A DNA stretch of 64,000 nt from positions 1-64,000 of IMG/VR virus record IMGVR_UViG_3300025816_000009; one strand, given 5' to 3'. The number at the start of each line of letters is the position of its first letter. The stretch's first letter is position 1. This DNA comes from a virus. Made by a program: the position numbers and the translations under genes. Below, one piece after another: positions 2-50,692 of the stretch. The notes beneath the pieces are model-generated. The model did no database searches. It was not told where the DNA came from and saw only the letters and a list, made by a program, of their open reading frames with translations.

Positions 2-3127
<3,126 letters not shown>

Positions 3128-3131
3128 TATT

Positions 3132-3806
3132 ATGACGAGAAACTTTAGAGATACAGCAACAGCAACAAGAGCATTGAAAGAAACTCAAAAAAATTGGTTG
3201 ATGAGAATACAAAACGCATACGGTGAAAACTATTATGACGCTTTATCTGATTCGGAAAAAGCCGAACTTGATACGTTTAGAACTGCGATGAAAAATCTTT
3301 CTAGCATATCGACTAAAGAGTCATATCACGACGATGGCGTTTTTCCAACTATTCCATCTTGGTTTGACTATGGTGATTTAGCAGAATCCCAAGGAGTTTC
3401 AAGAGCAACAGCCGGCCCGACAGGAGCGACCGGACCTACAGGCAATACAGGCAATACAGGTCCTACAGGGCCAACAGGAAGCGCAGGTCCACCCGGCAAT
3501 ACAGGCGGTACAGGTCCTAGAGGGCTAACAGGAAGCGCAGGTCCACCCGGTCCGAGCGGTAGTGATGGAAGCGACGGAAGTGCAGGTCCGCCCGGTCCTA
3601 CAGGACCAACAGGAAGTGCAGGTCCACCCGGCGCTACAGGTCCAACAGGTCCTAGCGGTGGCGGCGGCGGCAGTGCAATTGATGTTAATTTTGATGGAAG
3701 AGAATCAACTACGATGGTGCAGTGGCTTGTTGATTCAAGAGGCGGAACAATCCAAATCCACTTTGCGAACGGAGCGGTTGGAACAATAACCGGCGTCTTA
3801 TTCTAA
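3132..3806 (+). CDS. Tail-fibre-assembly-like N-terminal domain fused to collagen repeat
   Basis: N-terminal [19 protein letters not shown]...FPTIPSW resembles tail fibre assembly chaperones; followed by Gly-X-Y repeats; directly downstream of the fibre gene. Confidence 0.55.
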
Positions 3807-3842: not shown

Positions 3843-4904
3843 GTGAAAATCGGCCTAGCCATGATAGTAAAAGATGAACAAGACAATATCGTTCGTGCGC
3901 TTGAAACTGTAAAAGACGCATTTGACGTCTTCTGTATCAATTATTCGGGGTCAACAGATTCGACCCTTGAAGTTGGAGAAAAGTGGATGGAAGAAAATGA
4001 GAAAGATGGGATTTGGATTTGCCCGGAATGGAATGGCGCGGCCGACGGACTAAATGCGACAATCGAGTACCTAGCGGAAATGGAAGTAGATTGGGTCTTG
4101 CGTATTGACGCCGATAGCCTGTTCACAGGAACGCTCCCAGACTTCGAAAAACTTGACCAAGATACAGACGGAATTGATACTAAGATTCTTAGAAATGATG
4201 GAACTTTCATCGCATCTCGACCATGGCTTTTCAAAACTCATTGTCGATACAAAGGAGTTCGACACGAAGGGCTTTATTGTAATCAACGAGAAGAACAAAC
4301 AAGTTTCACAATCACTCACGCAGATGACAGCGGAGCGCGTCCGCGTAGCCCGGAAACTTATGCAGATGACTTTCAACAAATGGGGGGAGCGATACCGGGA
4401 GAGTATGATTCGATGATGGTTAAGCGGTATGCGTTTTACATGGCGAACTCGGCGAGAGATGGTGGAGATTTATTCCAAGCCGCGATGTGGTTCAGATTGA
4501 GAATGACGATGGGCGGTTATGCGGGTGAAGTAGAAGTTTCAGCAAGAGAACACGCTCTGATAATGGGACAACCTCACTTTTGGCTTGACGCGATTAACAA
4601 ACATCCGAATAGACCGGACATGATATTTTGGGCATTGGCGACAGCAGAAGGTTGCGGCGGTGTACCTTTCAAAGCACAAGTTCTTGAAATGATGGATGCT
4701 GAAAAGTGGGAGCAAGGTTGTATGTTTATGCAGGCTGATTATGCTTGGAAAACTCGAGACATGATTTCGATTGCATATGGTGAATTGGGTCAGATGGAGA
4801 AATCGCTTGATTGGGGAAGACAAGTTTTGGTTTGGAGAGATGAGATTCACGCAGATGATTTGGCTCGCATATTGAGCCGAATAGGTGAAAGTGAAGGTGA
4901 GTAA
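3843..4904 (+). CDS. GT2-family glycosyltransferase with TPR-like C-terminus
   Basis: IGLAMIVKDE start, GSTDST, VLRIDAD (DxD motif), YKGVRHE, helical C-terminal half. Confidence 0.8.
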   Translation: MKIGLAMIVKDEQDNIVRALETVKDAFDVFCINYSGSTDSTLEVGEKWMEENEKDGIWICPEWNGAADGLNATIEYLAEMEVDWVLRIDADSLFTGTLPDFEKLDQDTDGIDTKILRNDGTFIASRPWLFKTHCRYKGVRHEGLYCNQREEQTSFTITHADDSGARPRSPETYADDFQQMGGAIPGEYDSMMVKRYAFYMANSARDGGDLFQAAMWFRLRMTMGGYAGEVEVSAREHALIMGQPHFWLDAINKHPNRPDMIFWALATAEGCGGVPFKAQVLEMMDAEKWEQGCMFMQADYAWKTRDMISIAYGELGQMEKSLDWGRQVLVWRDEIHADDLARILSRIGESEGE

Positions 4905-19707: not shown

Positions 19708-20151
19708 ATGCCGAGGAACTTTCGCAAACTCAACATCCGAAGGTATGTCGGAACTGTTCCCAATCTAACTTACGCATTTGCTAACTTCACAAATATGACT
19801 CCAAACGAATTGTTGAATAATTACAAGGATTATGCAAACGGTGATTCGATAGGCGGAACGGGAACGACACGAACTCCATTAGGAGCGACCGTACATATAG
19901 ATTCAAGCGCACCTAGATTATTGGGAGCATTCCCCGGCGGTGGGATGAATACGACAGGATATACAAATACGAGAATCGCCGCTGTCTCTCAAGTTCCACT
20001 ACAGACACCCCAATTGACAGTCGCCGGAACGATTCTTGCGACACCGACGAATCTAACTTTTTCACCATGGGGCGGAACAGGAACTTTGGATAATGCAGTT
20101 AATGGAAAAGCCACGCGATTGCTAAGGCCAATGTTTGTAAAAGTGGTCTGA
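19708..20151 (+). CDS. Hypothetical Thr/Gly-rich (virion?) protein
   Basis: 147-aa ORF in the head cluster. Confidence 0.55.
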   Translation: MPRNFRKLNIRRYVGTVPNLTYAFANFTNMTPNELLNNYKDYANGDSIGGTGTTRTPLGATVHIDSSAPRLLGAFPGGGMNTTGYTNTRIAAVSQVPLQTPQLTVAGTILATPTNLTFSPWGGTGTLDNAVNGKATRLLRPMFVKVV

Positions 20152-20209
20152 CGTATTCATAGCGGTTGCCGCGTCAGTCGTTCGCTGTACTGCCCTCACG
20201 CTTTCTAGT

Positions 20210-20245
20210 TATAAACCTTTTCATTGATAGATTGTGAAATTGATA
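20210..20245 (-). promoter_or_regulatory. ATTGA-repeat promoter cassette (leftward arm only)
   Basis: tataaaccttttcattgatagattgtgaaattgat. Confidence 0.7.
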
Positions 20246-20249
20246 TTGG

Positions 20250-20402
20250 GTTAGATTCCCCCCGTTCGTTATCACGAGTAGTTTCGGGGGGGATTCTTTT
20301 TCGATGTGTTTTAAGCATCAGAGTCCGGATTTGCACCGGCAGGTTCGCGACACCGGCCTGTCCTAAATTACCCGACCGAAGCCGGGCGCAGACGCCTCTC
20401 CC
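20250..20402 (-). ncRNA. Putative structured ncRNA A
   Basis: Starts at G 30 nt after TATA; GCCCGGC-UUCG-GUCGGGU hairpin; CCGG-UGCAAAU-CCGG T-loop-like hairpin; AGGCGUC/GAUGCUU closing stem; 3' C7/G6 hairpin. Confidence 0.55.
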
Positions 20403-20426
20403 AAACTGAACGGGTCGCTTTCTAGT

Positions 20427-20478
20427 TATAAAACTTTCTATTGAGATATTGTAATATTGATAAATAGAAACCTTAATA
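20427..20478. promoter_or_regulatory. Bidirectional ATTGA-repeat promoter cassette
   Basis: tataaaactttctattgagatattgtaatattgataaatagaaaccttaata. Confidence 0.75.
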
Positions 20479-25851: not shown

Positions 25852-25957
25852 TTAGGCATGAATCCCGCATGGGAATTAATTTGCCTCTTCGAGTTTGTTG
25901 TTTGGATTGGATTGATTACCGATTGGTTTCTCCAAGGTAATAGAAGATGGTAGTTTT

Positions 25958-26134
25958 GGGAATGACCTTAGAAGGCTGAACGGATTAGGACATATTTCGA
26001 ACTATGCACCGACGTTGGAATAACTAACTCCACACCTTAGTCTCATTTCACTCTCTTTCAAGCACGTTATGAGATACCTTCACATTCCCGCCGCCCGTTG
26101 TGGTCGCGGGGCGACATAGGAACTAAGTTCCTAC
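25958..26134 (-). ncRNA. Putative structured ncRNA B
   Basis: G at TATA+30; 5' hairpins GUAGGAAC-UUA-GUUCCUAU and GUCGC-CCC-GCGAC; long-range GGGAAUG/CAUUCCC and UCUCAU/AUGAGA pairings; no ORF. Confidence 0.55.
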
Positions 26135-26158
26135 AAACTAAGCGAAAGGCTCTCCCCT

Positions 26159-26210
26159 TATTAATGTTTCGGTGTATCAATGTCAGTGAACCTCAATGAA
26201 AAGGTTTATA
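26159..26210. promoter_or_regulatory. Bidirectional ATTGA-repeat promoter cassette (inverted)
   Basis: tattaatgtttcggtgtatcaatgtcagtgaacctcaatgaaaaggtttata. Confidence 0.75.
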
Positions 26211-26234
26211 ACTGAAAGCCTGCCTCATTAGTTT

Positions 26235-26345
26235 GTAGGAAGACGCGACACGACATCGACCCGGACGCGCCCTTTACTAGACGCTGTTGAAAAATACTCG
26301 CATGAAAGGGACATGGATGGCGCTATTCACGCTCCGTCTTCCTAC
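26235..26345 (+). ncRNA. Putative structured ncRNA C
   Basis: Begins exactly at TATA+30; perfect 11-bp terminal stem GUAGGAAGACG/CGUCUUCCUAC; internal CCCUUU/AAAGGG. Confidence 0.65.
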
Positions 26346-26896
26346 GACTTAATTCTATCAAAGACCATCAACGTGTTTTTGAACCACCAAAAACTTGAGT
26401 CTTTTCTAATTTGTAATGTATCGGCGAGATGCAAACTGAATCCTCGTCTCGCCATCTCCGCGATTATCACTTCATTCGGTTGTTCGTTTACGTGATAATA
26501 TCCACCTTGTCCGGGAATTGCCCAAGATACAATTGCTCTGTTCAAACAAGTTTTACGGATGTTGTGAAGTAAATCTTGTTGCCTATTGGGTGGAATATGC
26601 TCGCCGACTTCTAGGCAGAGGATGTTCGCTCTGTCAAGTTCGACCAACTCTTCGGCCAAATCGACTTGGTGAATTGGATGAAATCTTGCGAGATGTTCTA
26701 GCGGCGTTCCTTCGAATCCTTCAACTTCGAAACCTTGCGTCGAAAGTGATACGCAATAATCTCCCGGTCCACAACCGAAGTCATAGATTGGTTCGTCCAT
26801 TGGAAAATATTTCCACAAGTTTTTCATAAGGTCGGGGTCAGAACCATGCTGACCATCCGCTTCTTCGACATTCCAAATCCCGGTCGGTCCTACCAT
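26342..26896 (-). CDS. Class I SAM-dependent methyltransferase
   Basis: YDFGCGPG motif I, LCLEVGEHIP, WAIPGQGGYYHVNEQ. Confidence 0.85.
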   Translation of the reverse strand: MVGPTGIWNVEEADGQHGSDPDLMKNLWKYFPMDEPIYDFGCGPGDYCVSLSTQGFEVEGFEGTPLEHLARFHPIHQVDLAEELVELDRANILCLEVGEHIPPNRQQDLLHNIRKTCLNRAIVSWAIPGQGGYYHVNEQPNEVIIAEMARRGFSLHLADTLQIRKDSSFWWFKNTLMVFDRIKS

Positions 26897-26900
26897 TGAC

Positions 26901-27287
26901 TCACTTCTTCTTTTTGGAGCGATTTCCGAAAGCCTTTCTTTTACCATCGGCTATGTCTTTTCGTTTCGCCATTTTCTTTGTTTCTTCCTTTAGTCTCTTA
27001 GTTATGACAGCGCCGGGTAAAACTTGTTGAGTAATTGGGTCATATTTGTAATAACCCGGATGACGTGCCTCACGGCGTTCTCTCATACAAATATCACAAT
27101 AGTGCGTTGAGTCCTTGGTATGTGAGAACTTTTGCTTGACACCTTCGACGAATAATGCTCTTTCAAGCGCTTCTTGTCTTCCGTCTCCATATCCCATTCC
27201 GATTATGCAGGGACGACCGTGAGTCTTGCATGGTTCTCCGCATAATTTTGTTGGCTTTGATACTCTCTTAATTTCTCGTTGCTCCAT
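26901..27287 (-). CDS. Hypothetical Cys-containing basic protein
   Basis: 128-aa ORF in the minus-strand operon. Confidence 0.55.
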   Translation of the reverse strand: MEQREIKRVSKPTKLCGEPCKTHGRPCIIGMGYGDGRQEALERALFVEGVKQKFSHTKDSTHYCDICMRERREARHPGYYKYDPITQQVLPGAVITKRLKEETKKMAKRKDIADGKRKAFGNRSKKKK

Positions 27288-27288
27288 A

Positions 27289-28596
27289 TTATATCACCCT
27301 TGACATTCCGCCTAGCGGATGTATTTCAATTGCAGTCTTCAATATCTGCTTTTCTAATTGGTCAGTTAGAACATCCCAATTGAAGTTCTTCTCGGCAAAC
27401 TTTCTCGCGTTCTCTCCGAACTCTTTTCTTTCTTCATCTTGTTCGTAAGCCGTTCGCATTTTCCAAGCGAGGTCTTCAATATCGACTAATGTCATATTGA
27501 CTCCCCATTGAGGTCCTGTAATGTGAGTAGAGGACTTAGCAATCCAACCGCGTCGTTGAGGTCCGTAGCCGACAAGTTCCGGACCTGTTGAGTTATCGGG
27601 AAGAATGATTGGCTTTCCGCAGGCCATGGCTTCTGCTGATGGAATACCAAAACCTTCTCCGCCTGTAGCCATGATATGAACATCACATGATTGGAACAAT
27701 CTCGCCATCTCTTCTGTTGTCAATCCCGAAAGTGGATTCGAACTTGTATCAGAGAAAGCGACGTAATCGCCTAAGTCGTATTGAGCGATAAGAGCCGGAA
27801 GATTCCAACCGCCCATTCCGAACGTGTCTGTCGGGTCGCCACAGTGTAGAACCAAGCCGACACTTTCGGGAACATCGGGATTGTAATGAATGAATTGTGA
27901 AAATGCTTCTAACAACCGGGGTATTTGCTTCCGATTTGTATTTCTTGCCACACTCATAAACACGAAATCCCACTTAATTCCCATCTTCTCTTTTAGTTCC
28001 GCTTTTTCCTCGTCGGTGATTGGTTTGAAAATATCAAGTTCGACACCGTGATACAAAACCGGCGTATCTTCTGTAAGATAACGGTCGAGGATTCCATCTC
28101 TGTTTTCAACCGGCCTTGTTCCTTCGGATGAATAATCTTTTACAAACTCGGTGAAAGTTCTTTTTCCAAACTTGCTCATCCACATCGGCGTGTGAACCAT
28201 TTTCAGAATATCCTTCCAAGCCGGAGATATTGGAAATCCGTCTATTGGAAGATAAGCAATATAAGGGATTGACATTTTGTTTGTTGACATTACCGCATGA
28301 CCAATATACCAAGGGTCAATTAAAGAAATGTAAATATCAATATCAAGTTTCTTTATTGTAGCCTCGAGAACTGTTGGGCTATTCGGTCCGCCCAAGTTTT
28401 CAGACCCATACCCGGAGATACCGGCGTGAACCATAGTCCATCCTTCGGGGTGAAGAAAATCCTCGCCGTTGTAATCCCAACCCATAACGAAAACTTCGTG
28501 GCCTTTGGCTACTAATCTCTTAATCAAGTTTCGACTTACGATTCCATATCCCGTTGGTCTTGTAGGTTGCTCGCTTCCCCATAGGATTCTCACCAT
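27289..28596 (-). CDS. GT4-family (GT-B) glycosyltransferase
   Basis: PTGYG, VARNTNRK, GEGFGIPSAEAMACGKP. Confidence 0.9.
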   Translation of the reverse strand: MVRILWGSEQPTRPTGYGIVSRNLIKRLVAKGHEVFVMGWDYNGEDFLHPEGWTMVHAGISGYGSENLGGPNSPTVLEATIKKLDIDIYISLIDPWYIGHAVMSTNKMSIPYIAYLPIDGFPISPAWKDILKMVHTPMWMSKFGKRTFTEFVKDYSSEGTRPVENRDGILDRYLTEDTPVLYHGVELDIFKPITDEEKAELKEKMGIKWDFVFMSVARNTNRKQIPRLLEAFSQFIHYNPDVPESVGLVLHCGDPTDTFGMGGWNLPALIAQYDLGDYVAFSDTSSNPLSGLTTEEMARLFQSCDVHIMATGGEGFGIPSAEAMACGKPIILPDNSTGPELVGYGPQRRGWIAKSSTHITGPQWGVNMTLVDIEDLAWKMRTAYEQDEERKEFGENARKFAEKNFNWDVLTDQLEKQILKTAIEIHPLGGMSRVI

Positions 28597-28627
28597 GTCT
28601 TTCGGTTGAAACCCACTACTATAACAG

Positions 28628-29173
28628 TTATGATTCATCAATGGAAGGGCCGGGCATATTTTGTTTGTCTTTCAATTCCGCCTTTCTTTTTTCTCGGACT
28701 CTTTGTCTTTTTTTCTTTTGAGACTTGCGTCGAGATTTGATTGCGTTTACTCGGAGCGGGTCATCAATGGTATCGAGGTCAATAGTCTGTTTTCCCCCAA
28801 CGTGTTCCGGACCCTTGCCGACAAGTTTCTGTTCGTAGTGATGAATCCGATGACAATTTGAACAGAGGATGTCGCACTTCGCCATCTCTTCTTCGATTCT
28901 TTTTCTTGAATATCCATTACTTACCAAGTGCGAAACGCCGGCAGTTTTAGTTCCGGCAACACGATGATGATATTCTAAAAGCCAAGGACAAGTTTCGCCG
29001 CTCAATCCACATTCCGAACAATTTGATTCTCTTCTGATTTCATCATACCAACGTCGAATATTCTTACGACGCAACGCAACTTCTGTCTTGCGTTTCTTTG
29101 CGTTATTTGCATAATAGACCTTCTGATAACGGCGATTGTACGCCCTTCGCTTATCAGCGTCCTTGTACGGCAC
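28628..29173 (-). CDS. HNH endonuclease
   Basis: CSECG...LEYHH...KCDILCSNCHRIHH; probable GTG start (MPYKD). Confidence 0.8.
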   Translation of the reverse strand: MPYKDADKRRAYNRRYQKVYYANNAKKRKTEVALRRKNIRRWYDEIRRESNCSECGLSGETCPWLLEYHHRVAGTKTAGVSHLVSNGYSRKRIEEEMAKCDILCSNCHRIHHYEQKLVGKGPEHVGGKQTIDLDTIDDPLRVNAIKSRRKSQKKKRQRVREKRKAELKDKQNMPGPSIDES

Positions 29174-29207
29174 GATTGATTCGAGCAAGTTTGAGGTTAT
29201 TTAGTGA

Positions 29208-29310
29208 GGTTGTAGAAGCCGGGGGAACGATTGCGGGTATTACAGGAGAGGACTTTCGTCTTACACACACACCGTCTTCTGTCTTCTTACCCCGGATTTC
29301 TTCTACTTCC
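29208..29310 (-). ncRNA. Putative structured ncRNA D
   Basis: G at TATA+30; terminal stem GUAGAAG(AAAU)CCGGGG / CCCCGG-CUUCUAC; GAC-GAAA-GUC tetraloop; purine-rich interior. Confidence 0.6.
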
Positions 29311-29332
29311 AATCTAAGCGAGTGGACTTTCA

Positions 29333-29386
29333 TTAATAAAGGTTTTCATTGAGAGGTTAAGACATTGAGATAAGGAAACCTTTATA
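29333..29386. promoter_or_regulatory. Bidirectional ATTGA-repeat promoter cassette
   Basis: ttaataaaggttttcattgagaggttaagacattgagataaggaaacctttata. Confidence 0.75.
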
Positions 29387-29409
29387 GGTGGAAACCTCTA
29401 GGGTTAAAC

Positions 29410-29706
29410 ATGGCAAGACAGATGGCGCTTACACAACAAATCAGAAACAGACTACCTACTCTATACTCAACAGATGGAGCGGGAACAGAAGCAATCGGAC
29501 AAGTACGATACTTTTGGGGAAGCAGTGCTTCCTTCGTAGCAACAGAGTTCGACGGAGAAGATACATTCTTCGGATATATCAGCGGTGTTCAAGAAGACGG
29601 ATGGACTTACATGAGCCTTTCAGAAATGTGGTCAACACACGGACGCTTCATGGGTACAGAGAGAGATTACCACTTCACACCAACAGCAATCGCAAACCTA
29701 CAGTAA
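29410..29706 (+). CDS. DUF2958-like protein (cassette-driven)
   Basis: LPTLYST...VRYF...ATEFDGEDTFFGY...WTYMSLSEM. Confidence 0.65.
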   Translation: MARQMALTQQIRNRLPTLYSTDGAGTEAIGQVRYFWGSSASFVATEFDGEDTFFGYISGVQEDGWTYMSLSEMWSTHGRFMGTERDYHFTPTAIANLQ

Positions 29707-29745
29707 GCGATTCCCTCATAAACCCCGAATCATCCTCGGAATAGT

Positions 29746-30147
29746 ATGGCGGTTCATGCGTTTACAGGAATCACAGGGCAAATAACAGTTAGTGGAACAA
29801 TAGTCGGTTTCGTTTCGGGTGATTTTACAGTAGCAAGAGCGACAGGAAAATACATTACTCTCGGTTCAAACTTGCCGACAGCGAATACACGAGGATTACA
29901 ATCAGTTAGCGGTAGTCTGACGAAAGCATGGGGTCTATCAGACGACACTCTATGGGATTGGTTTTACGGAGACACCGAACTTGTAATCGCATTTGACGCA
30001 GATGACCCATCTAGCGGCGGAACTCATACATACACAGTCTCCGGATGTGTTATTACAGATTTAGCAATTGAAGGCTTGGAAGCAGGCGCAGAAGGAGCAT
30101 TGATGATTAATGCGTCTTTCGAAGGACTATCAATCTTGAGAGATTGA
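29746..30147 (+). CDS. Major tail tube protein
   Basis: Beta-rich 133 aa (VSGSLTKAW, YTVSGCVI) upstream of the chaperone and tape measure genes. Confidence 0.7.
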   Translation: MAVHAFTGITGQITVSGTIVGFVSGDFTVARATGKYITLGSNLPTANTRGLQSVSGSLTKAWGLSDDTLWDWFYGDTELVIAFDADDPSSGGTHTYTVSGCVITDLAIEGLEAGAEGALMINASFEGLSILRD

Positions 30148-30157
30148 GTAAATTAAG

Positions 30158-30505
30158 GTGATTAAGATGACAGGATGGTTAAACTCCGCGCTCGAGAGGG
30201 CTTCGAACCCAATAACAGTGAATGTAGCCGACTTAGGTTTAGAAGTCGATGAACTACAGGTGAAGACACTTAGCGCCGCCGAGTTTCAAATAATGAAGAA
30301 AGACCCTGCCATATCAAACATGAACATCGCTGATAGGCAAGAATATATGGGCTTGAAAACTATCTATGAAATGTTAGCAAAATGCGATGACAGTTTGAAA
30401 TGGTCAGAGTTTCAAAAATTACCTTTACAATTACTTTCAGAACTAGCGTCGAGAATAACTGAAACCGTCGGAAACTTGGACGGTGAAGGTGTTTTGGGAA
30501 ACTGA
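30158..30505 (+). CDS. Tail assembly chaperone (gpG-like)
   Basis: Lies between tube and tape measure; ends in slippery G GGA AAC TGA. Confidence 0.75.
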   Translation: MIKMTGWLNSALERASNPITVNVADLGLEVDELQVKTLSAAEFQIMKKDPAISNMNIADRQEYMGLKTIYEMLAKCDDSLKWSEFQKLPLQLLSELASRITETVGNLDGEGVLGN

Positions 30506-30720
30506 AACTTGACGCCGAATCAGACGGCGGGCAGTTCCTCTATGGGCTATTGACCGAAATAGGTTGTACGCCTCAACAGTGGAGAGAAATGTCGTCAGAA
30601 GATACACTTTGGTACATATCAGCCCATAGTGAGAAAAACCGTCGCGCAAATGAATCGTCTCGTAAGCAATCGCAGATGGCGAAGGCGAGAAGTAATTTGG
30701 CGAAAAGTAGGAGACGATGA
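30496..30720 (+). CDS. -1 frameshift extension of tail chaperone (gpGT-like)
   Basis: GGGAAAC at 30496-30502; the -1 frame is open for 74 codons (GKLKLDAESDGGQFLY...TPQQWREM) up to the tape measure start. Confidence 0.75.
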   Translation, partial: GKLKLDAESDGGQFLYGLLTEIGCTPQQWREMSSEDTLWYISAHSEKNRRANESSRKQSQMAKARSNLAKSRRR

Positions 30721-33092
30721 ATATGGTTATGGGTGCAGGGAAAACGGCTGTCAATGCAGTTGTCTCCGCTGACGCTTCCGGTTATACAAAAGCCATGAAA
30801 GGAGTCGCCGCGGCAACAGGAACGGCAACTACGGCGGCTAAGGGATTCGGTGGAGCATTAGCCGGATTAGCCATCACCTTCGCAACTTTCTTCGCAGTTT
30901 TCAAAGCCATCGGTTTCGTTGTCAACACAGTCAAACTATTCATTGATTTTGAGGAACAACTTTTCCGCACAAGTGCGATTATGAAACAGTTCACACTTGG
31001 AGCAGAAGAACAGGCTATCGCCATGGGTAAACTAGAAGACGAAATCCGAAGCGTTGCGGCAGGTTCGAAGTTCACAGCGACAGAAGTCGGCGCTATGGCT
31101 GAAACTCTAGCGCTTGCCGGTTTGTCGCTTGACCAAATGAGAGGTGCGACATCCGATTTAGACACGGAAGCCGGAAATGCTCTGAAAACAATGGTTGACT
31201 TCGCGGTTGTTGCCGGAACAGATGTTGAGACTGCGGCGGGAATTGGTATTGCATCTCTCAAAGCATTCAGACTTGATATTCAAGACCTAGAAAGAGCAAC
31301 ATCAGTATTGGCAAACACCTTCACTTCTTCTTTCGTGAACCTACAACAATTGGGTGATTCCATGCGTTTCTTCGGTCCTACTGCGGCGGCGGCAGGTGTG
31401 AGCATATCAGAAGCGGCGGCGGCTGTAGGTGCGCTTGGAGACGCGGGATTGCAGGGTTCTATGGCCGGTACGGGTCTTAGGCAGGCAATCAACAAATTAA
31501 TCGCTCCGACAGATGATGCGAGAAGAACCATGGAGAGATTAGGATTTGAGTTTACGGTTTTATCACCGGCGGGCTTGGCGGCGAAAGAGGCACTAGGTTC
31601 GACAATCAGAACCATTGACGATTTAGAAAAAACAATTTCGTCAGCGAACATGGAACTCAAATCTCTGAACAACGAATTAACCGACATGAGTATTGAAGAG
31701 GAAAAGAACTCAATCAACATCGCAAGGATTCGTCAAAGAGCGGCTAGGCAAAACCGAAACTTGACTAAAACCGAAATGGCTACAATCAAAAGATTGGAAT
31801 CGGCCAATGAAGATTTAGCACTTGCTCAAAGAGAAGGTGCGTTGGAATCGAGACAAAGAGAAAGAGCGTTAGACAGGTCAACAGATTCGCTTGCAGAGCA
31901 GAATGACGCTTTCAAGATTCTCAAAGATACTGTCGATAGTCAAACCACAGGTGTCGGTAGTTTAGTCGATATGATAGAAGAACTGAATAGTTCCGGCGCT
32001 ACGACAGCGGAGATATTGGAAATCTTCGGTGTTCGAGGTGGTGGTTCGATATTGGCTCTCCAAGGAAACGCCGAGGCTCTAAGGTCAATAGCAGAAGCGA
32101 ATCAATTAGTATTCGACGCGACTGATATGAATAACACACTACAAGACCAATTCGTTAGACAGTTAGAAGGCTCAACGGCTTTCGCGCTTGCTGAAACTCG
32201 TTCGAAGTTCGAGGAATTATCTTTGGTTATTGGTGAACCATTTGCTCGCTTGATAACAATGGAAGGTGGGATTAAGCAAACCCTCGATGCGGCAATTGAG
32301 AGAGCGTCGGGAATGGGCGATGAGTTTCAAATGATTGCTGATTCGGTCGAGACTGAATTATTGCCTGCGTTTGCAGAGGCTTTCAAACCCGGCAACGTGG
32401 AGAAGTTTGTTGAAATACTCGGCGCATTAGTTCCGGAAATATTGAAAATAGTTGGGGTCATTGGAAAATTAGCAGAGATAATAGAACCAATACTCGATGG
32501 TATTTTAGCAGTTATGGAGAAGATGGCCGAGTTCAAAGATTTCGTCGGTGATGATAACGAGGATAGAGAAACTAGGTTAGTCGGGAAGGAAGGCGAAACA
32601 ACATTCGATTCTGTAAAAGACGTCGGGAAGATGACTGCGGCGGGAGCGGGAGTTGGCGCGTTGGTTGGTGGTCCTGTAGGCGCGTTAGCCGGAGCGGCTG
32701 TTGGTTTGGGTGCGGGTGTTGTTTTTGAAGTCGGGCAAGCAGTTGTTCATCATGGTGGAAATGCTTTAGATAATGAAACAGACATAATGGGAAATCCGGT
32801 AGGAATGCCGATGGCAATTGGTGGAGTTGTTAACTCTCCAATTACAGCATTGATTGGGGAAGCCGGTCCGGAAGCAGTTATTCCGCTCGATAGGCTTCCG
32901 GAAATGGTAAGTCAAATTAATTCCACAAGTTCGACCTCAAATACCGAGCAGGTGATTAACCTCACTTTCGACTCAATCAATATCGGGGCGGGAAACAACG
33001 TCTCGGCGGGAGATATAAGGCAGATTATTGAAAATGAAATGCCTAAGATTATACGCAGTTCATTAACAAGAGGCGTTCGGGGGGTGTTGTGA
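30717..33092 (+). CDS. Tail tape measure protein (TP901-like core)
   Basis: SKFTATEV...LALAG, GLQGSMAGTGLR, GEAGPEAVIPL. Confidence 0.9.
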   Translation: MNMVMGAGKTAVNAVVSADASGYTKAMKGVAAATGTATTAAKGFGGALAGLAITFATFFAVFKAIGFVVNTVKLFIDFEEQLFRTSAIMKQFTLGAEEQAIAMGKLEDEIRSVAAGSKFTATEVGAMAETLALAGLSLDQMRGATSDLDTEAGNALKTMVDFAVVAGTDVETAAGIGIASLKAFRLDIQDLERATSVLANTFTSSFVNLQQLGDSMRFFGPTAAAAGVSISEAAAAVGALGDAGLQGSMAGTGLRQAINKLIAPTDDARRTMERLGFEFTVLSPAGLAAKEALGSTIRTIDDLEKTISSANMELKSLNNELTDMSIEEEKNSINIARIRQRAARQNRNLTKTEMATIKRLESANEDLALAQREGALESRQRERALDRSTDSLAEQNDAFKILKDTVDSQTTGVGSLVDMIEELNSSGATTAEILEIFGVRGGGSILALQGNAEALRSIAEANQLVFDATDMNNTLQDQFVRQLEGSTAFALAETRSKFEELSLVIGEPFARLITMEGGIKQTLDAAIERASGMGDEFQMIADSVETELLPAFAEAFKPGNVEKFVEILGALVPEILKIVGVIGKLAEIIEPILDGILAVMEKMAEFKDFVGDDNEDRETRLVGKEGETTFDSVKDVGKMTAAGAGVGALVGGPVGALAGAAVGLGAGVVFEVGQAVVHHGGNALDNETDIMGNPVGMPMAIGGVVNSPITALIGEAGPEAVIPLDRLPEMVSQINSTSSTSNTEQVINLTFDSINIGAGNNVSAGDIRQIIENEMPKIIRSSLTRGVRGVL

Positions 33093-33093
33093 G

Positions 33094-36000
33094 ATGGCAA
33101 AGTTTACTCAAAATATAACGAAGCCATTTTCGCGCTTGAAGAATGGTTTGGTTGAACTTCAAAGATGGTGGCCGGCTTATGTCAAGAATGACGGCGTTGG
33201 CGGATTGACTGTTGACCCTGTTTTGTATCACACCAACTTCGGACATCTCACAAATGCCGATGAAGGCTCACTGAACAGCGAGAATGATACGCCGGGGGTA
33301 AGAGTCGAGGCAATCAAAGACGACGGCACAGCGGCCGCTAATAACGACGGAAGCAATACAACATTCACAATCACTATCTCCGGCGCGGGAACTTTCAGTC
33401 CCATGTGCGTAGTCAGCCAAGCCGGAATTGAAACGAAGTTTATGCTCATCGCTCCATCTCCGGACACTCAAGCAAATGCAGAATCGGTTTACGGCGAGAG
33501 CGTTTCATCTACCGATAGAGGATTCGGTGGCGGAACTACTTGGCTACTTAGTCAAGGTCCTTATCCTGTTTTCATGACAGTACAGGAGTTCGCAGAGATG
33601 CTTGATACATACAGGCATATTGGTTCAAATGACGGACATAAGAAAGCATTCCTTCCTCATGCGATGCTCGGTGGCGGTGCTTTAGGTCTAGGAGCGTCCA
33701 CAGCGCTTCCGCAGATACAGAATGACCCTAGAGTCTCATCAAGCACTAATTGGCCTGCTGACGGCTCAACAGCGTCAATAACACAATCTCTGATTCGAGC
33801 AACGGTCTTCATGCCTTTGATGTTAGACAATAATCAATTTGATAAGAGAATAACCAATGCTAGTATTGACCATTCGACACCGAGAGACTACGGAACGACG
33901 ACCAACCCCGAGTTTGTCGGTTATCTGACAGCAGATGGAACGGGAATAACAAGATATGATTCTGACCCTCAAGGTGAAGATTCGGCTACAATTAGATACA
34001 AAGATTTAGGATATTCCGGCGACCACTTACAAGGAAAAGTGGGCGGGTGGTCATACTTTGAAATAAACAAAACACACAACAGCGGTACTCCGGTAAAAGG
34101 CGGAATGTCAAATCCCGATATTACAGCAGATTCCGGTCCATCATTAGCGCCAAAATATAGAATGAGAATGGCGCTTGCCTGCTTTTTGAAAAATGGAACT
34201 TATGATATTACAGACGGAAATATAATTCCTTACATTTACGACGCTGATAGAACAATCGGCGGAAAAAATACAATGACACTTTATCAAGTTTGGAACGGTA
34301 AAGATGGAAAAGGCGAAACAGGAAATACTCCGCAACATGATTGCGACGCGCAGATTTACCCGATGTTCGATTTCGTTCAAGGTCCTGTTTCACCGGCGGC
34401 TCAAGGTTCGAACGCTCACAACAGCGCTTTGGCCGAAGCAAGGTCGTGGCCGAACTTGGTAGCACTAGACACGAATAAATCATTGACTGAAAAAATTAAT
34501 CCAAAGTTCCAAATTGTCAGACCGAATCCTCGAAGGCATAGATTGTTCGGAGTTAAATTAACGACAGCCGGTGTCATGGAACTTTTCATTGAAGGAAGTG
34601 GAGTCGCAAGTTATTTTGATTTCCAATGCCGAGAAGGAATGCCGATTTACATCACAGGAATGACAGGGGTCTTGGGAACAGGTTCTCCCAATCCGGATTT
34701 CAGACTTGATGGTTATCAAGATGATGCGGCATCCTCGACAACAATTAATGCAACTAAAACGACAGGTGGTTGGAATATGAACGGTTGGTGGATTACAGCG
34801 GGTTTTAGTGCCGGGTTCGATGAAATCAGCACGAATACATATGATGAAATATTTGGCGATGGTGATTCTACCGCGGTCAAGTTTCAAATCGTTAGAATCA
34901 AAACTTTGGTAAACATTAGACCAACGTCTGAACATTTCTATAGAATAGGTTCAGCGGCTTCTCCATCAACAGCATACGTTTGTCAAGGAAGAAAACCGGG
35001 TTATATGGACCTAGTATTGAAGTTAGGCTCAACCACTAATCCTTACGGAATTGCGCCGATGAGTGTAGGCACGTCCATGGGTTCTCCCGGAAATACACAA
35101 GTTAGATTCGGCGGCGTTGGTTCTCATGGAAGTGGATTTAGTTCTGATACCAATGTTCCCCAATCTGAAAACGATACATATCCTTGTAGGCCAACCGTGA
35201 GAAATGCTCAATACCCCGACTCAAGCGGACATTTTAACAACGATAATAATTACATTGTTAGAGCGATTAGTCCTCGCAAAGATGGAGACGACACTTTCTC
35301 AATGTCTCCGACAGTATCTTCCTTTGGTGGTGGTTCTCTAAGAGTTCCGCCGCCTGTTGGTTGGGACTTACCACAGGCTTACTTTTCTTGGCCTATATAC
35401 CAAACAGGACCGGCGGGAACTACAGTTCCGGGTAGTGAGACGGCTTCAAGAACGTCTCGTCTTTGGTTGAATGACACGACAGGCGCTTATCCGGTGAGAA
35501 ACGTAAATGTTGATTATGGTAGTTTTTCCAAATGGGGTCATCGTGGATTATCAATTGCTATGTTGTCTTACATGGATTCGACTACGGGTCGCCACGCTTG
35601 GGATTACATAAAACCCGTTTCAACTTCGGGAAGTTGGTTATACGGAAGAAACAGACCTTGGCCGGCTCACGAAAGATGCGGAACAAGATTTGGTTATGGA
35701 CCTTCATTATTAGAAACCGCCAAAGTCGTAAATACAAATGGGATTTCATACGATGGTTGGCAAGACTACAACGCAAATGGCGGCAATAGAATTGAGGCAG
35801 GCGAAGAGACTACGAAGATAGGCGTCTCTGAAATCGGTTGTTCTCCTGTATGGTTAGACATGGAGATGAGAGCATTCGTCCCGGTCAGTGAAAACAGAAT
35901 GACACTCATTGAGTTCGATAACGGTATTTCATATCCTGTACTCGGAAGACATTCTATGATTACAGGCGGAATAACAAACGACGCTCAATTCGGACTTGGG

Positions 36001-37944
36001 TTCTATCCAAAATCATCAAACGGTTCAAAACAACAATTCAACGCTTCGACTGCCCCCGAAAGTCAATTGCTTGGAGCATTACAGAACTCATCCGTGGCAA
36101 CTTCCGGCGTTGATACAAGAAGACCGACATTCACGCTTGGTCGTCCGGCTGTATATATTTGGGGAACTTCTCCATATTTCTCAAATGCTGATTGGTCGAA
36201 TACCGATACTTGGCCGTTCAGTACAAATAAACTTGGTTGGGGTGGTTTAGGAAGTGATGTTGGTTATGGAACAGGAACAGCATTAGCAGAGGGAACTCAA
36301 ACAATTAGAACTGTATTCACCGAAGGCGGAATGGAATTACTTTTGAATGGTAATAGCAAAGGTGTTGACACGAACTCGGGTCAGCACATTTGGGGAATGA
36401 CAATCAAAGCCTGCGATGTGTTGGCGGCTAACGGAAGTATCAACACACCGACGGTAATTAAGAACAGTAAGGACGAACCGATTACAAACTCAAGTCCGAA
36501 TCTAGCCGTATCTTCTAAAGATTTACAGATTGATTATTTGACGCTTAGACAAATCCCATCTCCGGCCATGCTTCCTTTTGATGTTAGTACGACAACACAG
36601 TCCGTTGCTAACGTAGCAAAATATCGAAGCCTCGACATCACGGCTGAAAACATTAGCACTAGCAGAGGTATGAGGATTCGAGTCAGTCTTTTCGAACCGC
36701 CTGCGGCGACAGGAATCCCGCAGGCAGAACCAACTACGGCAATTACAGGATTCACAGATTTAGACCCGGGATTCATAGCAGGTGTTGGAAGTGTTGACCT
36801 TTCAAACTTGCCTGCGTCAGCAATAACAAATGGTTTCGTCATCAAATATCATTTCTATATTCCTCATTCAAATGAAACTGATTTACATCCGATTAATTGG
36901 AATCAGATTCCTATCATTAGAAATTGGGAAGTTCAGTATGATTTGAAACCGACGGCAAGTTTGGACGTGATTGGAAACTCATTCAGTGGCGACCTATCGA
37001 GTCCAATAGGAACAGAAGTGGGCCACATAATCTCGTTCAGAGGAACAGGAATTACAACTGACGTTGATAGATTAATTTCTCAAATCAAGTTTGACTTCGG
37101 TGATGGTTCTCAAACAGGTTGGTTAGATTTTTCCGACCAAACTTTACAAACAACTACTTACGATGTTGCTCACGTTTATTCGAAAGCAGGTTCTTTCAAC
37201 GCGGTTGTATATTCAAAAGATGACAACGGAAATGAGTCTGTAGCAAGTTCCGCAATATCTGTAGTCGTAGCAGAAGTGAAACCTGTCGCCCTATTGAGAG
37301 CAATACCTTCCATGATAAGAGCCGGACAAGCAACAACTTTTGACGCTTCTGAAAGTTATGTTTTGTCAACTGACCAATCGAGAACAATTGCATCTTATAC
37401 ATTTGATTTCGGAGATGGCAGTTCAACTGTCTCCGGCTCAAGCCCGAATGCCGACCATACTTATGCAACCGCCGGAGAATATATGGCGACAGTCAGCGCG
37501 ACTGACAACGCATCTCCGGCCAATACATCCGTTGTCGCGAAAGTGGTTGTCAAGATATTACCTGCGACTCTTGTAATACCGTTAAATCTCAACACCAAGC
37601 CGGCTTCATTTGACCGAACAAGAAAAGCGAACTATAGTTCCACGCCTGTTCTTGATGCAGTATATCCGGAAATGAGCGACATGGGTTCGAGAAGTGATGA
37701 GTTCAAGATGACAGGTTCATTCCTCAAGGCGACAGCGAATGCCGATATTGATTTCATGGAAGAGATTCTAGTCAGTGGCTCTTTAGTCGAGTTCGAATAT
37801 GAAGATACAGATTACAGCGGAAGTGCAGTAAACAAAAAGTTCGTAGGAAGATTAACTGATTTCAACTATCAAAGAGAAGGTGGACGCCATGGCGAAACAC
37901 CGTGGTCGGCTACGCTGATGCGTGAAGCCGGACTAGGAAATTAA
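33094..37944 (+). CDS. Large tail/baseplate protein with two PKD domains
   Basis: FDFGDGS...HVYSKAG and FDFGDGS...HTYATAG; follows the tape measure gene. Confidence 0.75.
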   Translation: MAKFTQNITKPFSRLKNGLVELQRWWPAYVKNDGVGGLTVDPVLYHTNFGHLTNADEGSLNSENDTPGVRVEAIKDDGTAAANNDGSNTTFTITISGAGTFSPMCVVSQAGIETKFMLIAPSPDTQANAESVYGESVSSTDRGFGGGTTWLLSQGPYPVFMTVQEFAEMLDTYRHIGSNDGHKKAFLPHAMLGGGALGLGASTALPQIQNDPRVSSSTNWPADGSTASITQSLIRATVFMPLMLDNNQFDKRITNASIDHSTPRDYGTTTNPEFVGYLTADGTGITRYDSDPQGEDSATIRYKDLGYSGDHLQGKVGGWSYFEINKTHNSGTPVKGGMSNPDITADSGPSLAPKYRMRMALACFLKNGTYDITDGNIIPYIYDADRTIGGKNTMTLYQVWNGKDGKGETGNTPQHDCDAQIYPMFDFVQGPVSPAAQGSNAHNSALAEARSWPNLVALDTNKSLTEKINPKFQIVRPNPRRHRLFGVKLTTAGVMELFIEGSGVASYFDFQCREGMPIYITGMTGVLGTGSPNPDFRLDGYQDDAASSTTINATKTTGGWNMNGWWITAGFSAGFDEISTNTYDEIFGDGDSTAVKFQIVRIKTLVNIRPTSEHFYRIGSAASPSTAYVCQGRKPGYMDLVLKLGSTTNPYGIAPMSVGTSMGSPGNTQVRFGGVGSHGSGFSSDTNVPQSENDTYPCRPTVRNAQYPDSSGHFNNDNNYIVRAISPRKDGDDTFSMSPTVSSFGGGSLRVPPPVGWDLPQAYFSWPIYQTGPAGTTVPGSETASRTSRLWLNDTTGAYPVRNVNVDYGSFSKWGHRGLSIAMLSYMDSTTGRHAWDYIKPVSTSGSWLYGRNRPWPAHERCGTRFGYGPSLLETAKVVNTNGISYDGWQDYNANGGNRIEAGEETTKIGVSEIGCSPVWLDMEMRAFVPVSENRMTLIEFDNGISYPVLGRHSMITGGITNDAQFGLGFYPKSSNGSKQQFNASTAPESQLLGALQNSSVATSGVDTRRPTFTLGRPAVYIWGTSPYFSNADWSNTDTWPFSTNKLGWGGLGSDVGYGTGTALAEGTQTIRTVFTEGGMELLLNGNSKGVDTNSGQHIWGMTIKACDVLAANGSINTPTVIKNSKDEPITNSSPNLAVSSKDLQIDYLTLRQIPSPAMLPFDVSTTTQSVANVAKYRSLDITAENISTSRGMRIRVSLFEPPAATGIPQAEPTTAITGFTDLDPGFIAGVGSVDLSNLPASAITNGFVIKYHFYIPHSNETDLHPINWNQIPIIRNWEVQYDLKPTASLDVIGNSFSGDLSSPIGTEVGHIISFRGTGITTDVDRLISQIKFDFGDGSQTGWLDFSDQTLQTTTYDVAHVYSKAGSFNAVVYSKDDNGNESVASSAISVVVAEVKPVALLRAIPSMIRAGQATTFDASESYVLSTDQSRTIASYTFDFGDGSSTVSGSSPNADHTYATAGEYMATVSATDNASPANTSVVAKVVVKILPATLVIPLNLNTKPASFDRTRKANYSSTPVLDAVYPEMSDMGSRSDEFKMTGSFLKATANADIDFMEEILVSGSLVEFEYEDTDYSGSAVNKKFVGRLTDFNYQREGGRHGETPWSATLMREAGLGN

Positions 37945-37946
37945 GT

Positions 37947-38136
37947 GTAGGTGGGAGCGACCCATAGAACTCTCGACAGGTAATCAAGGCGGGTCATCGT
38001 CCCTTTTCCTCAACACCAAGCCGCACGACGACCGCATACACTGACGCCTTCGTGGTTCTCCTACTTTGTAAAAGTCCGCGGGGGGTTAGTCGCCGTAGGG
38101 TTCGTACCTTTCGCGGTGTCCGTCGCGTCCTCTTAC
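37947..38136 (-). ncRNA. Putative structured ncRNA E
   Basis: G at TATA+30; 5' GUAAGAGGACGCGAC pairs imperfectly with 3' GUCGCUCCCACCUAC; GC-rich; no ORF. Confidence 0.55.
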
Positions 38137-38160
38137 AAACTAATGACAGAGCCTTTTGGT

Positions 38161-38196
38161 TATAAACCTTTTCATTGAGAGTTTAGTAATATTGAG
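38161..38196 (-). promoter_or_regulatory. ATTGA-repeat promoter cassette (leftward arm)
   Basis: tataaaccttttcattgagagtttagtaatattgag. Confidence 0.7.
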
Positions 38197-38404
38197 GTAA
38201 GAGAAGCGGGCAATTACAAACCTTCTTGGAATCTCTTCCTTTTCTCGGTTTCCTCATCCTGTCCCGTCTTCTCTTAGGTTGTAAGATTTCGCGTTGCTGT
38301 TGGTCCTAGCCTTTTAGTGATATTTTCCATCATTCTATTCAAGTTTTTACACTCTGTTTCTTTCACTACCCTAACTTTCACGAATCCGCGCCGCGTCCTC
38401 TTAC
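38197..38404 (-). ncRNA. Putative structured ncRNA F
   Basis: G at TATA+30; terminal stem GUAAGAGGACGCGG / CCCGCUUCUCUUAC; A/G-rich interior. Confidence 0.6.
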
Positions 38405-38428
38405 AAACTAAACGAGTCGTCTTTTGGT

Positions 38429-38480
38429 TATAAACCTTTTTATTGAGAGTTCTTTACATTGATAGTTCGAAACACTTATA
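38429..38480. promoter_or_regulatory. Bidirectional ATTGA-repeat promoter cassette
   Basis: tataaacctttttattgagagttctttacattgatagttcgaaacacttata. Confidence 0.75.
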
Positions 38481-38503
38481 AGGGGGAATGCCTAGGACAG
38501 AAC

Positions 38504-38779
38504 ATGAACTGCCAAGAGGAACAAATGACTCAAGAAATGTGGGACGCTATGCCGGAAGGTATGACCGTAAACTATGTGCGTCAAATGGAACAAATGACTC
38601 CTAGAGTAGCCCCGACTGTATCTGTAATGAACGGTTCTTCCCATCAATGGGACGCTGAAGTAGGCGCTTGGTATGCTACTCGTATAACCAACATGGACGA
38701 ATTATTGTGGGCTTACGCTGTTAGAACTGACGGTGGAGATGCTTGGGTCGCTACTGAAACAGAGAGGGTTTACGCTTGA
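38504..38779 (+). CDS. Hypothetical protein (cassette-driven)
   Basis: Leaderless ATG after ggacagaac. Confidence 0.6.
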   Translation: MNCQEEQMTQEMWDAMPEGMTVNYVRQMEQMTPRVAPTVSVMNGSSHQWDAEVGAWYATRITNMDELLWAYAVRTDGGDAWVATETERVYA

Positions 38780-50353: not shown

Positions 50354-50475
50354 TGCGGTCAAGAGCCAACACCCGCCCCCCGTCGGGGGTGGAGCAAGCC
50401 AACTCTGATTTACGGGTTTACCCTACAGGTGGAAGGCCGGCCGGTGAAGTCGCCTATTCCGGCTGACTCTATCGC
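50354..50475 (-). ncRNA. Putative structured ncRNA I
   Basis: G at TATA+29; GCG..GAGUCAGC / GUUGGCUC..CGC closing stem; GGG-UAAA-CCC and CCCCC-GAC-GGGGG hairpins. Confidence 0.55.
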
Positions 50476-50498
50476 ATTTGACCCTGTAGCCGTTTAGT

Positions 50499-50533
50499 TA
50501 TAAACCTTTTCATTGATAACTCAAGACATTGAT
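50499..50533 (-). promoter_or_regulatory. ATTGA-repeat promoter cassette (leftward arm)
   Basis: tataaaccttttcattgataactcaagacattgat. Confidence 0.7.
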
Positions 50534-50616
50534 GAGGCGGGGGAGCAACCCCCCATTTAGAATCAAGCCCGCAACCATGCGTGGGAATCGAACCTCTCGT
50601 AGCCCTCTTCTTCCTC
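50534..50616 (-). ncRNA. Putative structured ncRNA J (tRNA-sized, T-loop motif)
   Basis: G at TATA+30; GAGG/CCUC ends; GG-UUCGAUU-CC T-loop; CGCA-UGGU-UGCG; 3' G/C hairpin. Confidence 0.5.
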
Positions 50617-50640
50617 AATCTAAGCGAACAGCCTTTGAGT

Positions 50641-50692
50641 TATAAATCTTTTTATTGATAACTCAAGACATTGATAGAACAAAACCTTTATA
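50641..50692. promoter_or_regulatory. Bidirectional ATTGA-repeat promoter cassette
   Basis: tataaatctttttattgataactcaagacattgatagaacaaaacctttata. Confidence 0.75.

Follow-up and report, generated by a model that had tools for sequence, protein, structure and literature searches.

The question raised by this locus is what is encoded by three stretches of virus DNA that begin alike, fold into stem-closed structures, and carry no open reading frame (ORF) of their own. The DNA analyzed here (the window) is 64,000 nt long and comprises the first 64 kb of an 81,411-bp IMG/VR record, IMGVR_UViG_3300025816_000009. From its letters alone, an earlier analysis (the sequence-only reading) had proposed a subfamily of three paralogous RNAs, C, E, and F, with a conserved scaffold and variable interiors reminiscent of guide or decoy RNAs. 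The loci are real and related, and their anatomy differs from the one first proposed. Our preferred explanation, to which we give a probability of roughly 45%, is that the virus carries C, E, and F as paralogous genes whose products are stable scaffold or decoy RNAs acting in trans. The lengths assigned to them (111, 190, and 208 nt) were taken from stem to stem and are not measured RNA ends.

The three 5′ ends quoted in the sequence-only reading were located exactly, at 26235 (+), 38136 (−), and 38404 (−). Their pattern has four matches at ≤2 mismatches versus 0.45 expected, a count reached by 0 of 100 shuffles; the fourth match is C's own 3′ arm. The claimed 5′ likeness holds in part: GACGCGRC is the only 5′ element specific to C, E, and F, whereas the purine-rich start (G, then a purine run) is partly a trait of the promoter class, shared by 6 of 14 promoter sides and found elsewhere at ~26140 (−), GUAGGAAC, and ~63360 (−), GUGAGAGG. 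The motif GGGAC-N0-3-GATG (GAUG in the RNA) occurs three times on both strands of the 81,411-nt genome, once in each of the three RNAs, as had been claimed. This count is not enriched genome-wide (mean of 2.04 in 50 shuffles); the placement is non-random. As read from the sequences, C and E also have in common GAAAGGGAC..GAUG, CGCUCC, CCUAC, and the flank ACUUAAUU, and C resembles a fusion of the 5′ portion of an E-type domain 1 with the 3′ portion of an E-type domain 2. A sealing helix starts at the first base of each module, and its 3′ arm tracks the 5′ arm across paralogues (GUAGGAAGACG/CGUCUUCCUAC in C, GUAAGAGGGCGCG/CGCGUCCUCUUAC in locus L163, and GUAAGAGUAG/CUUGCUCUUAC, with wobble pairs, in L165).

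Homologues show which parts of these structures are kept. Among 172 loci collected, 18 are relatives of the virus by BLAST. Counting the window itself, there are two distinct variants of C, three of E, and one of F. RNA C folds at −31.7 kcal/mol (z −2.2), and its ends form an ungapped 11-bp helix with pair probabilities of 0.96-0.99 (P(1:111) = 0.96); 4 of 5000 shuffles reach such a length from nt 1. The interior holds a GCGCC/GGCGC helix, with the GGGACAUGGAUG block immediately 5′ of its GGCGC strand. The copies in L012, L017, and L121 are identical to C (111/111), and the variant in L013 and L117 is 84 nt long. The L013 closing helix reads GAAGUCG/CGACUUC versus GAAGACG/CGUCUUC in the window: all 11 pairs are kept across the two distinct sequences, with pair 9:103 changed from A-U to U-A. 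The compensatory change suspected in the sequence-only reading is borne out here, and 3′ compensation across homologues is observed. L013 also keeps the GCGCC/GGCGC helix and the GGGACAUGGAUGGCG block, with a few internal bases different, and its apical hairpin is shortened (a 26-column alignment gap; 41 nt to 15 nt by hand count). The hairpin directly 5′ of GGGACAUGGAUG is replaced in L013, and the 5 nt directly 3′ of GGCG differ.

Pairing of the 5′ end with the 3′ end had been proposed for all three RNAs. It stands for C, but the 5′ ends of E and F pair with internal partners, and both RNAs are predicted to consist of two tandem domains. In the E ensemble the partner of nt 2 is nt 68 (P 0.998) and that of the 3′ end is nt 74 (0.989); AAA links the two domains, and end-to-end pairing, if forced, costs 6.9 kcal/mol. 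Domain 2 in L049 has GUGGG/CCCAC in place of GUAGG/CCUAC while the 5′ end of E is still GUAAG; because of this double change with an unchanged 5′ end, the two-domain fold alone fits. When homologues are aligned domain by domain, all 19 pairs proposed for domain 2 are kept in three sequences, with pair 3:117 changed on both sides and three pairs changed on one side. The length of domain 1 varies independently (69 nt in the window and L019, 139 nt in L049), and its G5.U65 pair is G-C in L049. The long L049 domain 1 is homologous to a 148-nt RNA at the C position of a more distant relative, L163; among 38 predicted pairs in this comparison four are changed on both sides, one on one side, and none is broken. 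G.U pairs are present in E and in the L049/L163 helices on the proposed strand.

The conserved block in E is retained amid this turnover. Its motif lies at 37995-38003, and in L019 both flanks of a 26-nt block around GGGACGAUGA are replaced while the block is kept; in C and E alike, the GGGAC..GAUG block is unchanged where flanks have been replaced. Three one-sided changes leave intact a UUGAGG/CCUUGA helix that is able to enclose a GGG[ACGAUGA]CCC hairpin. An alternative GACCC/GGGUC pairing may also form in models of this region, and the columns concerned are invariant. In the window an 18-codon frame starts at the AUG of GGGACGAUGA; by our translation, a difference of 1 nt in length puts L019 out of this frame after codon 4. 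We rejected a small protein gene, as the reading frame is not kept between the window and L019.

RNA F folds far below its shuffles (z −3.9; 0 of 200). Nucleotide 2 pairs with nt 123 (P 0.999), the 3′ end pairs with nt 129 (0.85), and forced end-to-end pairing costs 9.5 kcal/mol. The segment GCUUCUCUUAC, quoted in the sequence-only reading as the 3′ partner in F, can form 9 bp with the F 5′ end (3 of 5000 shuffles) and pairs better with the internal CUAAGAGAAGACGGG (13 bp with one bulge, as read from the fold); pairing of the 5′ and 3′ ends is possible because the two F 5′ arms resemble each other. Domain 2 contains GGGACAGGAUG, at 38255-38265. No homologue of F was found among the loci collected. 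The idea of a conserved scaffold with a variable interior is therefore retained between strains, for C and E, and abandoned as a single end-to-end scaffold, given the two-domain anatomy of E and F.

Each RNA is preceded by a 21-nt box, CTCAATGAAAAGGTTTATAAC, of which the window holds eight copies at ≤3 mismatches versus 0.00 expected. We read the box as a TCAAT box followed by a purine-rich B recognition element (BRE, AAAAGG) and a TATA element (TTTATAA), which would make it an archaeal core promoter. The G of GUARGAG lies at +24 past the TATA in C, E, and F. At ORF 12939 and at the RFC gene, ORF 63456, which are the two coding cases among 14 right-hand promoter sides, ATG lies at +23. A start codon directly at the start distance is expected for leaderless archaeal mRNAs. 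By geometry alone, these spacings fall within the ~23-27 nt downstream of TATA at which archaeal BRE/TATA promoters start. A sigma-70 or Bacteroidota-type promoter fits worse because the downstream TTAGTTTG is absent at the coding copies.

Each box forms one half of a bidirectional cassette (TATA-BRE / TCAAT-N-TCAAT / BRE-TATA) whose two TCAAT boxes lie ~16 bp apart, and ~16-18 such cassettes were recognized by eye genome-wide among 70 pattern matches. On the side opposite C the cassette faces a predicted ORF-less transcript at ~25860-26140 (−), GUAGGAACUUAGUUCCUAUG..., with a local hairpin in its first bases. No protein gene is served by this cassette, since RNA C lies on one side and the ORF-less GUAGGAAC transcript on the other. 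The opposite side of the F cassette serves the leaderless ORF 38504-38779 (+), its start read from the sequence. E retains its own half cassette behind F, and in L019 and L049 the E RNA lies behind a full cassette. Cassettes positioned, for example, at ~5972, 12880, 20244, 20461, 26160, 29369, 38196, and 38463, and further at ~46616, 46955, 50533, 50675, 53276, 59616, and 63397, drive leaderless genes or ORF-less RNAs.

Table 1. Positions of the RNA units, their parts, and their promoters (window coordinates unless a locus is named)
Feature	Position	Strand	Description
RNA C	26235..26345	+	111 nt, one stem-closed domain
C closing helix, 5′ arm GUAGGAAGACG	26235..26245	+	pairs with 26335-26345 CGUCUUCCUAC
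C block GGGACAUGGAUG	26308..26319	+	invariant in L013
C promoter box	26192..26212	+	21/21 identical to box before ORF 12939; TATA ends at 26211
C cassette	~26150-26212		bidirectional; C box is its right half
RNA E	38136-37947	−	190 nt, two tandem stem-closed domains
E domain 1 (nt 1-69)	38068..38136	−	GUAAGAG / GA / CGCG ... CGCG / GA / CUUUUAC; predicted fold
E domain 2 (nt 73-190)	37947..38064	−	GUAGG/CCUAC and AGAAC/GUUCU helices; block GGAAAAGGGACGAUGACCCGCCUUGA
E promoter box	38159..38179	−	half cassette directly abutting the F 3′ stem
RNA F	38404-38197	−	208 nt, two predicted domains
F domain 1 (nt 1-124)	38281..38404	−	GUAAGA / GGA / CGCG ... CGCG / AAA / UCUUAC; A-rich interior
F domain 2 (nt 129-208)	38197..38276	−	UAAGAGAAG(A)CGGG ... 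CCCGCUUCUCUUA closing
F promoter box	38427..38447	−	part of a full bidirectional cassette
Twin-hairpin module	L049 508-646; L163 3424-3571	−	~105 nt; two AUUAACG-loop hairpins and a central GUCUC..GAGAC hairpin

From these observations we propose how the RNAs would be made and used. Host RNA polymerase would transcribe each RNA from the virus's repeated BRE/TATA promoter, starting at the G of GUARGAG. The product would consist of one module (C) or two (E and F), with a helix sealing the first bases of each module to its last. The sealing helix and the short block GAAAGGGAC-N0-3-GAUGR are kept while inner hairpins are enlarged, shrunk, or exchanged between strains, and recombination between promoter cassettes would add or remove whole units. 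Presumably abundant and acting in trans, such RNAs may bind a host or viral protein via the conserved block, and their sealed ends may confer stability. Of this picture, the repeats and their geometry, the maintained pairing, the exchange of modules, and the absence of matches to known families are observed here; protein binding, abundance, the precise RNA ends, transcription itself, and any part in infection are inferred.

Several observations weigh against this proposal. The conserved block lies in a different predicted structural context in each of C, E, and F, so it may be inherited sequence and not a common binding site. The covariation rests on two to three variants, with structures derived from the same sequences, and shuffle controls on the number of pairs are not significant for C (230/500) or for E domain 2 (179/500; three sequences). 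No oligo-T terminator directly adjoins the stems: the nearest run of five T (T5) lies 34-38 nt past C, and E has none after it. Three RNA-labeled sequencing runs yield thin contigs, over coding and non-coding DNA alike, that span even the untranscribed cassette core (26111-26283); because they are thin, cover coding DNA equally, and span that core, these contigs may be DNA carry-over. Neither an RNA-binding partner nor a target turned up. No RNA-binding or RNA-processing Pfam family was found among 72 ORFs scanned genome-wide, which extends to the whole genome the earlier statement that the window holds no cognate effector, and Pfam, PHROGs, and NCBIfam gave no L7Ae, Sm, Alba, Cas6, RtcB, or RNA-type nuclease. 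(In one batch of 42 ORFs, 12 Pfam families matched, reported without per-ORF assignment.) By blastn-short of C, E, and F, the whole virus genome contains no antisense target of ≥15 nt; one 15-nt match, of E nt 114-128 with 37588-37602, is same-sense, as is the repeated AGGACCAACAG of F to the collagen-repeat genes. The RNAs gave chance-level matches (best E 0.4-0.6) to G001 and G002, two metagenome-assembled genomes (MAGs) with related capsid genes, a comparison that also touches on the idea of an RNA anti-CRISPR resembling a host CRISPR repeat; the rRNA of G001 is fragmentary and multi-copy, with 21 large-subunit pieces. Finally, the assignment to an archaeal host leans on gene content and promoter form only.

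The position of the units suggests another role, which we consider unlikely, as end caps or cis-antisense units: the sealed RNA would absorb or stop transcription from the spare side of a cassette, or tune the convergent gene by collision or antisense, with no function in trans. Each unit does face the 3′ end of a convergent gene. Between the end of C and the stop codon of the methyltransferase-like ORF 26342-26947, within which the T5 run downstream of C falls, lie 0-3 nt; E ends 3 nt from the stop of ORF 33094-37944, which encodes 1616 amino acids (aa). A flank, UAC-A(A/C)(C)UUAAUU, recurs after C, E, the L163 unit, and the L165 unit, and the complementary sequence, AATTAAGT-AGGTGGG, is retained where the 1616-aa homologue ends in relatives without E (L204 ~1675-1690, L205 ~4760-4775). 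We disfavor this and other by-product or terminator readings because the cassette at ~26150-26212 drives ORF-less transcripts both ways, E has its own promoter behind F, and compensatory change reaches internal helices far from the ends; the 26-nt internal block frozen amid flank turnover also speaks against them. Termination of archaeal transcription, moreover, is dependent on oligo-T and not on hairpins. The preferred scaffold or decoy reading faces a further contender, less probable still, in the rearrangements at the F locus. L019/L094 and L049 lack F and the half cassette after it, an insertion that in the window runs precisely from one copy of the box to another, with the junction falling within the box. 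L019 and L049 have one cassette there, equivalent to the left portion of the F cassette fused to the right portion of the E cassette. This is the footprint that would be expected from recombination between two boxes. Promoters and inverted-repeat stems could accordingly be recombination furniture that mediates shuffling, with the interiors as passengers, a counterpart of the PeSL elements of T4-type phages. An E-domain-1-type module lies at the site of E in L049 and at that of C in L163, unrelated RNAs occupy the C position in distant relatives, and PeSL cassettes of promoter and stem-loop are described as driving such exchanges (PMC2839356). Passengers, however, should keep neither pairing through double changes nor frozen internal blocks; mobility would be explained, but not constraint at the RNA level. 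Cassette shuffling is compatible with a functional RNA of any kind.

The closing stems themselves invite two other ideas. The RNAs might be precursors of circular RNAs, with an alternative bulge-helix-bulge (BHB) register cut by the host splicing endonuclease and the interior circularized by RtcB; we give this very little credence. A formal BHB register (2 bp/3-nt bulge/4 bp/3-nt bulge/2 bp) can be drawn at the 5′ closing stem in seven of eight units (C, its L013 variant, E, its L019 and L049 variants, F, and the L163 unit), but its ensemble probability is 0.0000 versus at least 0.997 for the continuous helix, and we reject it as the favored fold. L165 lacks the register, the outer helix is just 2 bp at the extreme 5′ end, and purine/pyrimidine arms slip readily with G.U pairs. 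BHB-like matches are equally common in shuffled E (2 versus a mean of 5.28) and not clearly enriched in F (6 versus 2.44); C has 5 versus 0.95. The guide-like character suspected in the sequence-only reading fares worst of all: that H/ACA or C/D guides redirect host pseudouridylation or 2′-O-methylation is barely credible here, despite an archaeal host, a GAUGA resembling the end of box C, and ACA triplets overlapping the stem end of E domains 1 and 2, F domain 1, and the L012 copy of C. Neither RUGAUGA nor CUGA occurs in C, E, or F, which excludes C/D box small RNAs (sRNAs), and a simple scan for consensus kink-turns (K-turns) gave 0 candidates in the three RNAs (shuffled means of 0.17, 1.01, and 1.46). 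C in the window and in L013, like F domain 2, has no ACA after it. In H/ACA RNAs the ACA box lies ~14-16 nt from the pocket; the 3′ strand of C spans 22 nt from the upper helix to the end. With these results and the lack of a target in the virus genome, the guide interpretation is not supported.

No known RNA family accounts for the units. Rfam 15 gave no match at the gathering score and none at E ≤1 across the whole window, and none at E ≤10 in 37900-38500 and 26150-26400. In six related loci the sole match was sR28 (E 0.044; L010 2398-2446), away from the RNA units, and the ~105-nt AUUAACG-loop module of L049 and L163 has no Rfam match. ARAGORN found no tRNA or tmRNA gene in the window. The consulted portions of the literature, including PMC5434244 and PMC11706807 (Poseidoniales viruses), describe no such RNAs or cassettes; supplements, which may annotate such regions, lay outside the search.

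The nearest precedents are of different kinds. PeSL (promoter-early stem-loop) elements of T4-type phages are described as regulatory cassettes of a promoter and a stem-loop that drive modular exchange (Arbiol et al. 2010, PMC2839356). As in PeSL, a short conserved promoter element is repeated genome-wide beside stem-forming sequence, and indels or replacements between close relatives are bounded by the repeats, as seen here for the F unit. The differences are that the element here is an archaeal BRE/TATA bidirectional cassette and not a sigma-70 early promoter, and that no protein gene follows the stem, which surrounds 60-190 nt of structured, covarying RNA. Archaeal C/D and H/ACA sRNAs share the archaeal context, terminal stems, and GAUGA and ACA-like elements, but C, E, and F lack box C, box D, and the K-turn, and their pocket geometry is unfit. 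Adenovirus VA RNAs and Epstein-Barr virus EBERs are decoy RNAs that these viruses make in abundance and whose 5′ and 3′ ends pair. They resemble C, E, and F in their size of ~110-210 nt, dedicated promoter, terminal end stem, and structured interior; no sequence or family relation exists and the host here is archaeal, so the analogy is functional only.

A bolder extension of the decoy reading, which we hold to be improbable, is that marine archaeal tailed viruses maintain a fast-turning arsenal of stem-sealed decoy RNAs, built from a bidirectional cassette and interchangeable modules, that titrate host RNA-binding defense proteins or RNA-processing proteins. Its modules would be the GGGAC..GAUG block, the twin AUUAACG-loop module, and the CACGUCUCUAGGGAGUG hairpin, with C, E, and F as three cargoes. 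If true, this would be an RNA counterpart of anti-defense gene islands, and the first for archaeal viruses. To our knowledge, archaeal viruses have yielded very few non-coding RNAs so far, and the abundant uncultured tailed viruses that infect marine archaea have yielded none. In this genome ~0.5 kb in three units, plus several more, is devoted to promoter-equipped, covarying, ORF-less RNAs. The RNA units differ between strains that are 92-96% identical elsewhere, and turnover of units between close strains is typical of conflict-driven or accessory selection. Promoter-cassette recombination, familiar from T4-type phages, is suggested to operate in archaeal viruses too, RNA genes being the cargo. 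Marine metatranscriptomes can now be compared with specific candidate transcripts whose 5′ ends and module borders are predicted.

The virus encodes a portal, a large terminase, a tape measure protein, a prohead protease, and an HK97-type capsid protein. It also has a replication set of archaeo-eukaryotic style, with PolB, an Xpf/Hef-type nuclease, an XPD/DinG-like helicase, a prim-pol domain, and an RFC small subunit (NF001679 at 281.6 bits, slightly below the cut-off of 303). The top tblastn matches of PolB are the haloarchaeal tailed viruses HCTV-5 and HVTV-1. Capsid relatives come from a 'Methanobacteriota archaeon' MAG contig and from a contig binned as Legionellales. In size and gene content the virus agrees with the published description of magroviruses (PMC5434244), of which it may be a member. 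From gene content and promoter form, we take the host to be a marine archaeon. The genome also encodes collagen-repeat proteins (window 236-3806), a Mom-family protein (Pfam E 9e-33) among 42 small ORFs scanned, and a CobS/CobT-like AAA+/VWA pair at genome positions 68091-72694.

Wider searches added little to the set of relatives. A scan of metagenomes with the box returned at least 114 stretches, mostly chance matches, and a degenerate-box scan recovered mainly an unrelated virus group. Searching IMG/VR for exact matches to the E-block and C-block patterns yielded no loci beyond those already collected. Loci found via the capsid gene have 65-76% DNA identity; other RNAs occupy their C position, and they have no equivalent of E or F at the E/F position. 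Three loci in this identity range (L184 10900-11450, L187 6840-7200, and L188 12800-13000) are without C and the minus-strand operon; on the opposite strand they have another conserved stem-closed RNA (GAGAGAGGCAUAACUCCGUUGAAAGG ... GGGGAUGCGGACCGCGGGCCUCUCUC). An additional ORF-less transcript, of ~330 nt, is predicted in L184.

Other observations concern junctions and further RNA units. Half or more of the words sampled from this DNA are found in each of 17 public DNA sequencing runs. DNA contigs of run X17 at 38155-38185 pass from the E box into sequence beside the 12.9-kb box, reflecting either assembly ambiguity at a repeat or true inter-cassette recombinants. Two unrelated convergent genes (window 37936-37955 and 26335-26358) have the sequence AATTAAGT(N)GTAGG at their stop codons, and it could be a shared 3′-end or junction signal; judged by its letters, the AGGTGGG in relatives without E may be a ribosome-binding site. 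Two more tandem pairs of promoter-driven RNAs lie at 20150-20450 (−) and 50400-50660 (−), neither recognized by ARAGORN or Rfam. One of these RNAs carries GGUUCGAUUCC, which is T-loop-like, another carries CCGGUGCAAAUCCGG, and several end in G/C hairpins without a U run. A leader of ~145 nt at 29189-29334 (−), ahead of a glycosyltransferase/methyltransferase operon, contains GUAAGAAGAC ... CUUUUACAAC, the arm motifs of domain 1. A hairpin of 25-30 nt, AAUCAAUCACGUCUCUAGGGAGUGGAUUU, occurs three times in L165 7104-7400 (−), twice within the RNA at the E position, and once in an RNA of L010 at ~3260 (+); it is a second movable RNA module.

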